The notes under the pieces were generated by a model. It searched no databases, was not told the DNA's origin, and saw only the letters and a program-made list of their open reading frames with translations. This document shows, one piece after another, positions 849 through 53,718 of a stretch of 64,000 bases of DNA. Where the stretch lies: the NCBI GenBank assembly GCA_905178155.1, contig CAJINV010000005.1, forward strand, positions 4,009,556 to 4,073,555. The letters are read 5' to 3'. This stretch comes from Amoebophrya sp. A120 (Eukaryota > Protista > Dinoflagellata). Made by a program: the position numbers and the translations under genes. Within the stretch, counting starts at the first letter, position 1; every line of letters starts with the position of its first letter.

Positions 849-2325
849 TCACACCGAGCGGGCGAAGCTGTTCGAGTCTCGTTCTTGAACTACATTGATT
901 TGCCTAGAGCTAGACAACATACGTTGGTGAAACTCAAAAAACAACATCATGGTGTAAAAAAGTATGCTCTCCATACCAAGCTTCATTTTCAACACTCTCA
1001 TGGAAATATCGAGGTTCGGCTTCCACGATATGAAGATGTCGATTTCGAACCCCTTCAGGTCCTGCTTGTCCTTCTTGTACGCGTGCACCGGCCCAAGTTC
1101 TGGTGCCTCGTCTATCGTAAGGGAAAATCCCCCCTCCCCATATTGAAAAGGTATGTCTCCGAAAATTTGCGTTGCTGATTTGAGGTCACAAATCACATCT
1201 GTCTTGCAAGAAGGCATCTCCACAAGCTCCGCAGCATTGTGCAGGCGGTTTGTGATGCTGATGGGCCTACAGCACGGACGTTCCTCGTGCTAGACGCCTA
1301 GGCCAAAACCTCTCTACTTAGGCTTAGCATGGGCCTGCATTTCTCTCCAGCAAGACAGATCTGATTTGTGTACGCAAATCCTGCATCAGAAACTTCGTTT
1401 TGATATGGGGAGGGGGGATTTTTCCTTTTGATATCGTCCCCAAGATAAAAGCTGGTAATTTTGATTCCGTTCAGCGGCACCGGAAGCGAGGCCTGCTATC
1501 AACTGTAAAAATGTCTGGGTCTGGAAGATTGGGGGAGTTTGTCATGCAAATTTTACATGACCTGCGATGTCGGTGATGCATGCTTTAGCATTACAGGTTT
1601 TGTGCAGGATTTCTCATGCGTATACTGCATGAGAAATGCCTTCTCAGAATAGCAAAAATCTGAGTGCCGATTGCTGGTCATGCAATCAAGGCTTTTGTAT
1701 CATCGAAAGTTAGCATCACAAATTCCATTCTTTCCAGACCCAGACACTTTTGTATTTGATACCTGCAGCGTGGGCTCGATCTCGTCCTTTAGCAACTTGA
1801 GCACCGCTTTGTTTATGTACGGCCAGAGCGCCTTCATTGTCAGATTCAACCATTGCAGTCCCTCGCCCGCGGCGACCACCTTGCCGCCACCTAGATGCGA
1901 AGCACGGCTTCCCGAGACGTGCATGTGCGAGTCTCGCATCTGCGGAGGAGTTCCCCCCTTGTCCGGGCTGTCGGTACTAGCGTTTATATCCTGAGTAAAA
2001 ACGTAGCCACACCAGAGTCAGGATGGGGATTTTGCAACACAAACCTAGGAGTTTTGTGCGTCACGCATGACAAGTTGCACTATGCAGTGTAGTTCAGGTT
2101 AGCAAGTGCAGCCGCGTCACAGATTCATCTGCTCATCCTGTTCACAGCATCACAAATTCCAAAACACGACTGGAAATGGCACTCATGGGGATGCGCATTA
2201 CAAGTCTTCCTGTCTTTGCAAATCCAAATCTGCATTACAACTCTGGCGTGGGTACGTTTTTACTCAGGATACTTTATGCGGTCGCGTTTTGCGTCCTTCG
2301 CTGGCGCACTACAACACGATGGCAT
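849..2325 (-). CDS. SMP-domain (synaptotagmin / extended synaptotagmin-like) lipid-transfer protein; 5' part, 3' end uncertain
   Basis: Removing the elements at 1987-2271, 1497-1761 and 1113-1433 (each plus 5 bp) gives MPSCCSAP...EGLQWLNLTMKALWPYINKAVLKLLKDEIEPTLQASLPVPLNGIKITSFYLGDEAPELGPVHAY...FEIDIFISW, which fits the SMP-domain pattern. Confidence 0.8.
1113..1433. mobile_element. IR introner, family B
   Basis: TIR tatcgtaagggaaaatcccccctccccatat / atatggggaggggggatttttccttttgata; TSD tcgtc; homologous to 45595-45916. Confidence 0.92.
1497..1761. mobile_element. IR introner, family A
   Basis: TIR tatcaactgtaaaaatgtctgggtctggaa; TSD cctgc; can be drawn as GT-AG. Confidence 0.93.
1987..2271. 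mobile_element. IR introner, family C
   Basis: TIR tatcctgagtaaaaacgta; TSD gttta/cttta; near-identical reverse complement of 32002-32280. Confidence 0.92.
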
Positions 2326-3575
2326 TTTGATTGATGTGTTCTCCGACAGACAACAAACAAATACTTTATTTGTCACGACGGGGAGGTGGACGGACTAGAT
2401 TGAGTCGACGCACCGGTACAAATTATATCGTCCGAAGGAATCCCAATCCGATCGGTCGCTTTCTATGCTGCAGGTCGTGACAAGAAGAACAAGGCTGTAG
2501 AGCCAGTTCCGTGGCAGTTTTGTTGAGCACGTGCCAGTCTTAGTGAAAACTTCAAAGCAGTAGAGCAGCTGTGGAGGAAAATAAAGAGTGCGCTCGACAG
2601 GAACGATTGCGCACTCACGAGCGACAGCGCAAGGTGTGAGTGTAGTTTTCTATTCAATTATCGTGGAGATGGAAAAACGCCGCTCCTCTCACGAGATTAC
2701 TCACACTCACGATTCGCTCCCGTACTTCGATTGCCGCGAGGACCATTTTTCTGTCTTACTTCACGATAAACGAAAGAAAGAAGCGTGTAGAAGTACTAGA
2801 TGAATAAAGTACACTAGAGCTCCGTTCTCCTGTGAAACACAAAGGAAAACGCTTACGCACGAGGCCAACACCATCATGGACCTCCACTTCCATATTATTT
2901 GTACCATTTTTGAATGGCACAAGGCTGGAGCGGTTCAGCAACCAAACGAAACAAAAAACATCTCTGTGCGTGATTAAGATTAGGTTCTAGATCAAGTTGC
3001 GATATAGATGAAGGAGAAACAAAGAAATGAGTGTGGTGAGTTCGAAACGCGTGACCTGTGCAAGATAATGAGCCGCCGACTCTCCAGGGCGTGACGAGCC
3101 AGCCATCCTTTACCTTTATCACTTTATATGACATTGATAAGTTAGTCCTGGAAAAGCAATCGACAAGTACTCTTCTCTCGGTCGCCCGGAACGAGACAGC
3201 GGAGGGCGAGCTTAGTTGTAGATTGATATCATATCATGTAACTAAAGTAGAGGTAAAGTGCCTTGCTTATGCCCTGAAGATGTGGCTCCAAAGGCTGCAC
3301 AAGAAGTGGAAATCTTCTTTTTCCAATACAAACTCGTACAAGAAGAAAAAGAAAACGAAGCGTCGTCGCGATCTTCAGCAGCAGAGGCGAGCATCTGACA
3401 GGGGCGAGATCATGAACATGAGTACAAAGGTTCAGTTAAGTATTCCTAGGAACTTATTTTTCAACATTTCGTCCATACACTCACAGTTACAAACAATGAC
3501 GAAAAGTTGATGGAGCCAGGCCGCCTCCTGGATTTTTCCTATTTATAATTTTATTCTCATCAATTATTGTCCTCT

Positions 3576-52900: not shown

Positions 52901-53718
52901 TGGGTCTGGAAGAATGCAACTTGTCATGCTGATTTTGGATTCTAAAAAAATCTGTATTGCATGAGTACCAAAAGGAATGTAATTTTTGCTACGCGGAGAG
53001 GGCATTTGTCATGCGGAATAGGCATCAAGAAGCTCTGAAAAAATCTGTGATGCTAGGGCATGCATCACAGACATCAGGGCTCATGCAAAACGTGCATGAC
53101 AAGTGTCAGAATGTTCCAGACCCAGACATTTTTACAGTTGATAATGTGAGCCGAAATACCAAAGTTACGCAACTTCCCAACGCGAAGGTCGTTGATGTTG
53201 ATGTCCGGCTGCTGGGCCGCGAAGGTGTTTGATATTTTTACCACGTTGCCGCCGTCTGCGGACGATCCCAACGCTGAAGCCGGTTCCGCAGCAGCTGCAC
53301 ATGCGGAACTGGCAGAGGAAAACAAGGCCCTGCTATCGAACAAGATGGACCTTGATGAACTCACGGACACGGACGGCGTGCAACAGCTCCCGAACAAGGG
53401 CCTGGTAGGCCTGTAACTACACTGGCTATTGAGGCAAAGTGTGCTGGGTCCTCGTGCAGCTCCACGAGAGGACGAACAACCCCGTTCATCGGCGCTGTAT
53501 CCTCGTCCGCGTGATGCGCTTGACAGGGTCGAAGACGAACGGAGAAATATTGAATCTTCGCTTGCACATGCCGACGGCGCCGAAGCCCCCGAGTGATTTC
53601 TGACATAAAATATTCGACCAGGAGGATGCGGCGGCCGCAGCGGACGATGTTCCCTTGTACTTGCGGAAAAAAGCGAACCACTGGTCCGTGCACGCGCGTG
53701 CTGATGAGATGATCGCAT
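46956..53718 (-). CDS. GFM1: Mitochondrial elongation factor G1, ~14 introns
   Basis: Motifs [139 protein letters not shown]; long presequence. Confidence 0.96.
47063..47407. mobile_element. Old IR introner
   Basis: IR tatgcccgggaaaatcgttgtac vs tacggcagtggaaaaacccgttgtac; flanks diverged; removal restores [12 protein letters not shown]. Confidence 0.72.
47565..47767. mobile_element. IR introner, family I
   Basis: TIR tat(c/t)ca(g/a)gaaaaaaacaccatc(a/g)caatca; TSD ggttg. Confidence 0.92.
48387..48636. mobile_element. Old, degenerate introner
   Basis: TA ends with a weak IR; flanks diverged; removal restores [16 protein letters not shown]. Confidence 0.65.
48823..49130. mobile_element. IR introner, family E
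   Basis: Family E TIR; TSD cccga. Confidence 0.92.
49175..49435. mobile_element. IR introner, family A (A2)
   Basis: Family A TIR; TSD ttcga. Confidence 0.9.
49556..49872. mobile_element. IR introner, family D (TIR resembles family C)
   Basis: TIR tattacagt(t/g)aaaaa(c/t)gcccccacccc; TSD aaggt/aaagt. Confidence 0.9.
50430..50654. mobile_element. IR introner, family A (A2), with a deletion in one TIR
   Basis: TIR tatgcattgcaaatatgtctggg; TSD tcgcc/tcccc; reverse orientation of 4551-4806. Confidence 0.9.
50753..51023. mobile_element. IR introner, family A
   Basis: Family A TIR; TSD ggtgc. Confidence 0.93.
51142..51478. mobile_element. Old, degenerate introner
   Basis: TA ends with a weak IR; sense flanks GCCAG/CCCAT; removing 342 nt keeps the frame. 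Confidence 0.65.
51765..52040. mobile_element. Old, degenerate introner
   Basis: IR tatgagagtgcac vs tatcaccgtgcac; sense flanks AACTG/TACAA; removing 281 nt restores the frame. Confidence 0.7.
52520..52791. mobile_element. IR introner, family A
   Basis: Family A TIR; TSD cgtct. Confidence 0.93.
52882..53143. mobile_element. IR introner, family A, inserted in the EF-G P-loop
   Basis: Family A TIR; TSD atgtg; splits AHI|DSGKTT. Confidence 0.94.

Follow-up and report, generated by a model that had tools for sequence, protein, structure and literature searches.

A 64,000-nucleotide stretch of the genome of the dinoflagellate Amoebophrya sp. A120 (contig CAJINV010000005.1, positions 4,009,556 to 4,073,555; hereafter the window) carries, between its positions 1113 and 53143, 33 elements with inverted TA..TA ends and 5-bp duplications. 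We propose, giving the proposal as a whole about an even chance, that these are miniature transposons with inverted repeats (MITEs) of A120 lying in exons, each excised from the transcript together with 5 bp at one fixed register, 1 nt before the element and 4 nt after it (−1/+4), by a spliceosome that reads U+2, A+3 and a predicted branch point at A−7. Since the elements, their ends and their repeats are already described in Farhat 2021 (PMC7789003) and Gozashti 2025 (PMC12130899), the observation as such is known; the rule for their removal is likely the new and testable part.

When the window was scanned de novo for inverted TA..TA ends whose flanks match over 5 bp, 19 pairs with an exact target-site duplication (TSD) came out, as compared with 0, 0, 2, 0 and 0 in five shuffles. 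Together with homology, relaxed scans and RNA joints this gave 34 candidates, from which 24435–24875 was removed (TSD matching at 1/5 positions, left end within an open reading frame (ORF), no RNA cover). One of the 19 exact pairs, 46826–47599, was treated as a chance pair, and 32829–33121, 31563–32177 and inner TAAAA shifts as chance pairs or mis-called ends. The exact pairs are well above the shuffles, and the total of 33 agrees with the at least 32 elements counted in an initial annotation of the window. All 33 lie on the minus strand. Their lengths run from 191 to 420 bp with a single exception of 2294 bp, a somewhat wider range than the 190–390 bp first given for most of them. The TSD is exact in 23/33, matches at 4/5 positions in 6/33 and is decayed in 4/33, and three of the 33 finish in ATG on the transcribed strand, so that the initial description of TA...TA ends and a 5-bp TSD holds for most elements and not for all. 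On the host strand the deviants in the window are four with a 5′ TAC and three with a 3′ ATG, with none of the reverse types. The figure of 5 bp is both the length removed beyond the element and the length of the flank match. The elements have the traits of MITEs: they are short, with terminal inverted repeats (TIRs), a TSD of fixed length and no coding capacity.

For comparison we used the JACKZZ01 contigs, 142 loci from a pattern scan, which belong to a close relative and not to A120 (95% amino acid (aa) identity in one protein). The window elements fall into nine multi-copy families, with copies also in JACKZZ01, and nine singletons. A TAT-N7-AAA end is common to the families, and among 411 oriented elements tabulated by position TAT stands at positions 1–3 and A has a frequency of 0.80–0.95 at positions 11–14. 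An internal motif, GCAT[GCT]A[CG]A, occurs 97 times in 11.4 kb of element DNA (8.5/kb) and 5 times in the other 52.6 kb (0.095/kb); it is present in all large families and absent from five old singletons. The shared ends and motif therefore make the families one superfamily, rather than the roughly eight unrelated families described at first. Because three of the five motif-free old singletons have RNA evidence of removal, the motif more likely serves a transposase than splicing. Positions 4–7 of the TIR occur in a few interchangeable versions across families (TATCAAA, TATGGAT, TATGCAT, TATGAAA, TATCCTG), and these differ between the two ends of single copies, a hint of end exchange between copies.

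The transcript evidence comes from contigs of runs X1–X4, which are RNA by automatic guess and are assembled contigs, not reads; transcript coverage comprises two 20-kb stretches with 29/33 elements inside them. All 13 simple joints among those listed correspond exactly to the element plus 5 bp. Near the start of the window these are 1113–1433 (family 2, gene g1, exact TSD; joint 1107>1434, present in X1 as well as X4 and with depth 0 in X5), 1497–1761 (family 0; 1491>1762) and 1987–2271 (family 3, TSD 4/5; 1982>2273). The gene for glucose-6-phosphate isomerase (GPI) has 36101–36493 (old, TSD 2/5; 36096>36495), 36790–36980 (family 4; 36783>36980) and 37040–37296 (family 0; 37033>37296). The elongation factor G (EF-G) gene has 47063–47407 (old, TSD 1/5; 47058>47409, with no slide), 47565–47767 (family 10; 47559>47768), 48387–48636 (old, TSD 2/5; 48381>48637), 48823–49130 (family 5; 48817>49131), 49175–49435 (family 0, 3′ ATG; 49169>49436) and 50753–51023 (family 0; 50747>51024), and the last of the 13 is 50430–50654 (family 0, TSD 4/5; 50423>50654). 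At 49556–49872 (family 8, TSD 4/5) the joint is composite, 49556>50138 with 2 letters between, and sums to two introns plus a micro-exon. This micro-exon of ~8 nt (within 49873–50140, EF-G) lies between the introner and a 257-nt intron; the latter fits either GA-AG or N-TAT...A−7, has no inverted repeat and is possibly a very old introner.

Eight further removals are implied by contig piece coordinates or a loose end. They comprise three in the DNA polymerase family A gene, 3622–3903 (family 3; arithmetic on X1 contig pieces), 4551–4806 (family 0) and 5457–5839 (family 5), together with 18229–18466 (family 7, WD40 gene), 40676–40938 and 40989–41254 (both family 0), 41311–41583 (old, TSD 1/5) and the 2294-bp introner with family-0 ends, 19114–21407, which an X4 contig passes from 19113 to 21413 (the end + 5 + 1). 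The interior of this long element holds a GC-rich tandem array of 92 bp (~14 copies, 19605–20918), over which X4/X1 depth is almost nil; a similar array occurs in L071 (72% over 929 bp). Three more elements have consistent piece ends: 39976–40261 (family 3, 3′ ATG; X4 piece start 40262), 45595–45916 (family 2; X4 piece end 45589) and 52520–52791 (family 0, EF-G GTPase domain; X4 piece end 52514, ORF restored by removal). Another three are without a joint among those listed and restore an ORF on removal: 9853–10092 (old singleton, 5′ TAC, TSD 4/5; 272-aa ORF), 39669–39933 (family 13) and 52882–53143 (family 0). The remaining covered element, 11950–12268 (3′ ATG, Sel1-repeat gene), is retained in X1 contig 10922–13123, and X4 contigs stop at 11950 and restart at 12269, which suggests that its splicing is incomplete; the other two ATG-ended elements, unlike this one, appear to be removed. 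Four elements lie outside the RNA-covered stretches: 23821–24240 (singleton, exact TSD; ORF restored), 28493–28729 (old singleton, 5′ TAC, TSD 4/5; 1174-aa ORF restored), 31178–31513 (singleton, TSD 4/5) and 32002–32280 (family 3), the host coding sequence of the last two being uncertain.

The X4 and X1 contigs also skip canonical GT-AG introns (35365–35601, 7341–7639 and 47820–48157), and all the RNA contig pieces listed agree letter for letter with the exons of the window. The DNA-type contigs X5 cross the flank–element borders at depth 43–51 and have depth 0 at the three RNA joints listed; because the assembly may have been built from X5, this run serves as a control, not as independent support. 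The initial reading of the elements as introns is borne out by transcript-type contigs that skip element plus 5 bp exactly, with depth 0 in X5 at the three joints listed. Retention in mature mRNA would, according to that annotation, speak against its reading; one element, 11950, is retained in a contig of one run (X1). The raw-read runs X7–X9 gave 7, 2 and 1 matching reads, all on repeats. A few of these match the family-0 end at 40989–41022 with different flanks, and family 0 is therefore also present in the organism of those runs.

When element plus 5 bp is taken out, ORFs of ≥200 aa run across 30/33 junctions, including those in the GPI, EF-G, DNA polymerase A, Sel1 and WD40 genes; element 45595 lies in a 71-aa ORF, and 31178 and 32002 only in ORFs of 77 and 56 aa, so that the claim of a frame restored in each case was slightly overstated for these three. 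Retention would put a stop into the longest spanning frame at 32 elements and a frameshift at one. The GPI gene (35220–38227, minus strand, PF00342) has a first exon 100% identical to an annotated Amoebophrya sp. A120 protein, and its spliced ORF contains the whole of that 651-aa protein. The DNA polymerase A gene (3570–8854, minus strand, PF00476) yields a 1347-aa ORF after removal, and the EF-G gene (46960–53400, minus strand; EFG_III, EFG_IV, GTP_EFTU) has nine introners and other introns. The interruption of invariant motifs reported initially is real: the P-loop of EF-G (SAH^IDSGKTT, element 52882), GPI and the sequence adjoining the polymerase O-helix (VYGVTK^YG, element 4551) are all restored by removal.

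An exact repeat lets the junction slide, whereas a decayed repeat fixes it, and the register can therefore be read from elements with imperfect TSDs. The donor offsets allowed with respect to the first T of the element are {−1} for 47063, {−1,−2} for 36101, {0,−1} for 48387, {0,−1} for 41311, {+1..−2} for 50430 and {−1..−6} for 1987. The sole offset common to these six informative junctions is −1. From them we conclude that the cuts likely have fixed places, 1 nt ahead of the 5′ T of the element and 4 nt beyond its 3′ end; the intron would then comprise the element with 1 base from the upstream repeat and 4 from the downstream one. At −1 the four joints with decayed repeats all read N-TA[TC]...ATA-N4. 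The ends of these old introns at −1/+4 are CT-CG (47063), TT-GC (36101), CT-GG (48387) and AT-TC (41311), indicating that there is no drift toward GT-AG and that the direct repeat is not needed.

GT-AG ends can be drawn at any register for 4/33 elements (1497, 32002, 36790 and 39976), the same four as in the initial annotation, and at −1/+4 for 3/33, 39976 giving GT-AG only at −3; 1987 reads GT-AA. The target sites were assessed from 344 oriented exact TSDs and have no enrichment for G at +1 or for a terminal AG. AGG stands at n3–n5 in 10 of them (2.9%), where ~2.8% is expected from column frequencies, and AG is equally common at n3n4 and n1n2 (26 vs 26), as expected if removal is largely independent of GT-AG, as had been inferred earlier. 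A coupling between +1 and −1 (chi-square p = 0.003) was driven by low TA/AT dinucleotides, and was set aside as evidence because these are scarce elsewhere in the TSD too.

The bases next to the cuts are conserved asymmetrically with respect to the transcribed strand. The window gave the first sign of this, and JACKZZ01 served to test it; there a strand-symmetric scan gave 454 unique elements (in the 12 longest loci, 152 real vs 4 in shuffles); the host strand was called from the flanks only, in agreement with Pfam in 22/23 cases, and the strict set comprised 262 oriented elements. In this set T+2 and its partner A−5 have 0 vs 8 variants (p = 0.008), T+4 and its partner A−7 have 11 vs 1 (p = 0.006), and A+3 and its partner T−6 have 1 vs 5, a non-significant trend (p = 0.22). 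Adding the window elements (n = 294) changes the first two comparisons to 0 vs 11 and 15 vs 1. A 5′ TAC is found in 11 clusters of the wider set (411 elements), a 3′ AT[GCT] in 9 and a 5′ [CGA]AT in none. A change of T+4 to C is tolerated though it breaks the pair with A−7, and a change of A−7 to G is rare though it keeps a wobble pair. Mutation in element interiors favours neither strand (A>G 427/10144 vs T>C 435/10141), and the other TIR positions from 4 to 30 are symmetric except for position 23 (25 vs 48, p = 0.01, uncorrected). Such asymmetry in T+2, A+3 and A−7 points to recognition of these bases as such.

After the departure of U1, the catalytic core of the spliceosome reads U+2, A+3 and a conserved A a short way ahead of the 3′ site. 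An integrase-like transposase acting in trans would insert the elements with the 5-bp duplication that is observed and without preference for GT or AG; the 5′ end would supply N-U-A and the 3′ end A-U-A-N4, in either orientation. Both orientations would work because each end reads TAT inward, and the largest family is inserted 90 times in one and 81 in the other. As the overhangs of 1 and 4 nt sum to the 5-bp duplication, splicing would restore the exon at any target site. The end-to-end stem would probably help young copies to join their two sites, in place of the missing U1, with no implication that it is required, and a lariat would form at A−7 through the U2/U5/U6 core. According to the literature, A120 keeps 83/89 spliceosomal proteins, with U2, U4, U5 and U6 found and U1 not (PMC7789003), U1 is present in Amoebophrya sp. 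Kv, whose introns are mostly GT-AG (PMC12005148), and the non-GT/AG introns of tunicates are processed by a conserved U2 spliceosome (PMC13326754). A modified spliceosome is favoured because the conserved bases are ones its core can read, because A120 retains the core without a detectable U1, and because Kv has U1 together with canonical introns. That A120 would thereby possess a second nuclear splice code, N-U-A...A-N6, in which G+1 and AG are dispensable and a U1-less spliceosome uses the two ends of a transposon, we put forward tentatively, at rather less than an even chance.

Several points weigh against the proposal. The RNA nature of the assembled contigs is a guess, the joints come from a partial listing, and 11950 is retained in one run. 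The register was derived from six junctions in four genes, of which only 47063 fixes −1 by itself, and the contig at 49556 seems to keep base 3 of the downstream TSD, which may require an offset of −3 or less, unless the aligner extended through a mismatch. When a codon model was used to test the register in JACKZZ01, −1 was not the favoured value (summed log-likelihood −12.3 vs the best; 5 stops). This test was noisy, with a confident frame for 37/108 elements with imperfect TSDs and 29 of them used, and four of its stops were due to mis-called ends and one to a likely wrong strand. The introners at the junctions of the JACKZZ01 Rpb1 gene have exact TSDs and hence carry no register information. 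This gene, for the largest subunit of RNA polymerase II (L054:4393–14930), has at least seven introners, one of them 972 bp long with an internal insert. The contexts of A−7 are TTTGATA, CAGGATA and ATGCATA, unlike the consensus that pairs with U2; G+1 and AG are free, and the coupling of +1 with −1 is not clear. Fixed spacers around short terminal motifs also fit the nonconventional introns of Euglena.

The last point leads to the main rival, a non-spliceosomal mechanism acting on the same elements at the same −1/+4 register. It would depend on a protein that recognises the paired ends together with the U-A and A bases, on endonuclease cleavage at fixed spacers and on exon joining by an RtcB-like RNA ligase, a route proposed for the Euglena introns and demonstrated for SOS splicing; we consider this possible and on balance unlikely. 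In its favour, GT and AG are dispensable, and the end pairing predicted for young elements is strong (−27 to −54 kcal/mol; z from −5 to −12). The Euglena introns follow a comparable rule, N3-CDG...CHG-N5-6, with paired terminal trinucleotides, fixed spacers and slidable repeats, the rule having been read from non-slidable junctions as here (PMC12501133). They differ in having CAG/CTG with spacers of 3 + 5 and a purine at the start of the next exon (PMC12501133), where we find TAT/ATA and, at the proposed register, 1 + 4, with conservation of a single base per terminal pair, so that their signature is absent here; circular excision products are reported for them (PMC12501133 and the review PMC11282704). 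In animals, SOS splicing removes DNA transposons from exon RNA without GU-AG through inverted-repeat pairing and RTCB (PMC12779559). It is imprecise and leaves indels (PMC12779559), whereas the contig joints listed here are exact even in invariant motifs, with the reservation that contigs drop rare variants. Pairing itself is weak in the old elements by prediction (z −1.1 for 36101 and −1.5 for 41311; terminal-pair probability ~0 for 47063 and 48387), yet these four are removed precisely. Changes in the stem that make G-U are about as common as those that make A-C (231 vs 207, p = 0.27; in a second test 173 vs 149, p = 0.20; interiors 630 vs 628), although a post hoc sum over stem positions 19–28 gives 82 vs 41 in favour of G-U. 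The hairpin-guided removal proposed in the initial annotation is therefore supported only in part: young copies have strong predicted stems, and neither the stem tests nor the old elements lend it support; the end-to-end stem may help removal, and selection on it was not detected. U+2, A+3 and the upstream A match the chemistry of the spliceosome.

A modified spliceosome might also be permissive, choosing different cuts within the direct repeat from one element to the next. The Fig. 3 legend of Farhat 2021 terms the sites variable or unknown (PMC7789003), the A120 families in the rows listed by Gozashti have mixed donor and acceptor dinucleotides (PMC12130899), 49556 may need another offset and 39976 yields GT-AG at −3 alone. 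Because junctions slide within the 5-bp repeat, annotated ends would be mixed in any case, and with the six informative junctions intersecting at one value, and the invariant T and the conserved A positioned relative to the element ends, we regard multiple registers as improbable. Self-splicing by minimal ribozymes like group III introns is more improbable still. Their consensus, 5′-NUNNG with a bulged A followed by 3 + 4 nt (PMC3534033), comes near to N-U-A-U...A-N6, sharing U+2 and a near-terminal A, the latter, which in group III bulges from a domain-VI hairpin, at −8 as against −7 here (PMC3534033, PMC4424553); +5 is G in only 32% of our elements. The interiors are unrelated between families, a 2-kb satellite is tolerated in 19114, an Rfam search of the window gave 0 matches, and trans-acting machinery is believed to be needed even by group III introns (PMC4424553). 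A hairpin with a direct repeat is the classic setting for template switching by reverse transcriptase. That the joints are such artefacts, or the loci pseudogenes with intact paralogues elsewhere, is nevertheless scarcely credible when 47063 is skipped precisely with no direct repeat remaining, retention would break every spanning frame, the listed RNA pieces match the exons without another letter and X5 crosses the borders at depth 43–51 with none of the three listed joints.

The spliceosomal proposal can be set beside what is known of introners. Farhat 2021 bears out the mention of inverted- and direct-repeat introners in Amoebophrya in the initial annotation, giving for A120 TAT, seven variable bases and AAA, direct repeats of 3–5 nt (5 bp in the legend of Fig. 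S19) and 29,850 copies, with non-canonical ends, a hairpin proposed and no transposase in A120 (PMC7789003). The window elements come from the same genome and agree in TAT-N7-AAA ends, a boundary repeat of 3–5 nt, repetition in the genome and removal from transcripts. That paper leaves the borders variable or unknown, where we propose a fixed −1/+4 register, and its text and legends contain no statement that we could find of a fixed register, the T+2/A+3/A−7 asymmetry or the shared internal motif, part of which its Figs. 3, S19, S23 and S25 may show (PMC7789003). The literature searched, a scope outside which most subscription papers fell, likewise gave no statement of a fixed register or conserved bases. 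Canonical U2-type introns with GT/GC...AG ends are unlike those described here (3/33 at −1/+4). The introns of Fritillaria are similar in deriving from MITEs with TIR and TSD while retaining the spliceosome; they prefer AG-AC/AG-AT and conserve U1, whereas in A120 the dinucleotides are free except for U+2, and U1 was not found (PMC11282704, PMC13326754). Introners of Polarella and Symbiodinium, again unlike ours, take their splice sites from constrained TSDs (bioRxiv 10.1101/2020.10.14.339549).

As to how the elements move, an integrase-like enzyme is the likely mobiliser. Most of 41/58 A120 rows in the supplement of Gozashti 2025 are classed as TIR DNA transposons (PMC12130899), and A120 family 38 is Ginger-like, with a 5-bp TSD and TA/TA termini as in the window; it measures ~810 bp and has ORF homology of Copia/Gypsy type, where the window elements are short and non-coding, the two being compared by description only (PMC12130899). 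IS3EU/GingerRoot elements also end in TA..TA, with a TSD usually of 6 bp, and Ginger2 has 4 or 5 bp, as against 5 bp here (PMC10045372). No transposase match to Pfam was found among 33 of the longer window ORFs, consistent with the initial statement that the window has none. In JACKZZ01, no transposase or integrase match was found in 146 ORFs of ≥250 aa or in 15 ORFs of long copies (161 in total); these long copies (500–1150 bp) carry non-coding inserts, so that copies of the kind envisaged initially, with a transposase inside, did not appear among them. Exact TIR patterns gave 0 matches in viral contigs and prokaryote genomes. An 866-bp TA..TA element at L017:11405–12270, similar in size to published family 38, has inverted ends that are long and shows neither the internal GCAT motif nor a Pfam match.

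Other features of the window are a 41-bp tandem repeat at its start (272–684) and a repeated region at 13107–14050 that is not an element, with an 83% match to L019 and raised X5 depth. The 71-aa ORF that spans element 45595 (45537–46077) presumably resembles Romo1/Mgr2. All genes examined with a long ORF or a Pfam match lie on the minus strand, which fits the unidirectional clusters reported for Amoebophrya.

Splicing of more than 60% of the A120 introns does without GT-AG and, apparently, without U1. Given a fixed register and three conserved bases, its mechanism would become directly testable, and the many slidable intron borders of A120 could be re-annotated. The equality of the overhang (1 + 4) with the length of the duplication (5) may explain in general terms why some families of transposons turn into introners, with the 3 + 5 spacers of Euglena maybe a parallel. 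If the proposal is true, a superfamily of transposons could insert at any point of an exon, whichever way round, and be excised without trace, and one rule would account for tens of thousands of introns.

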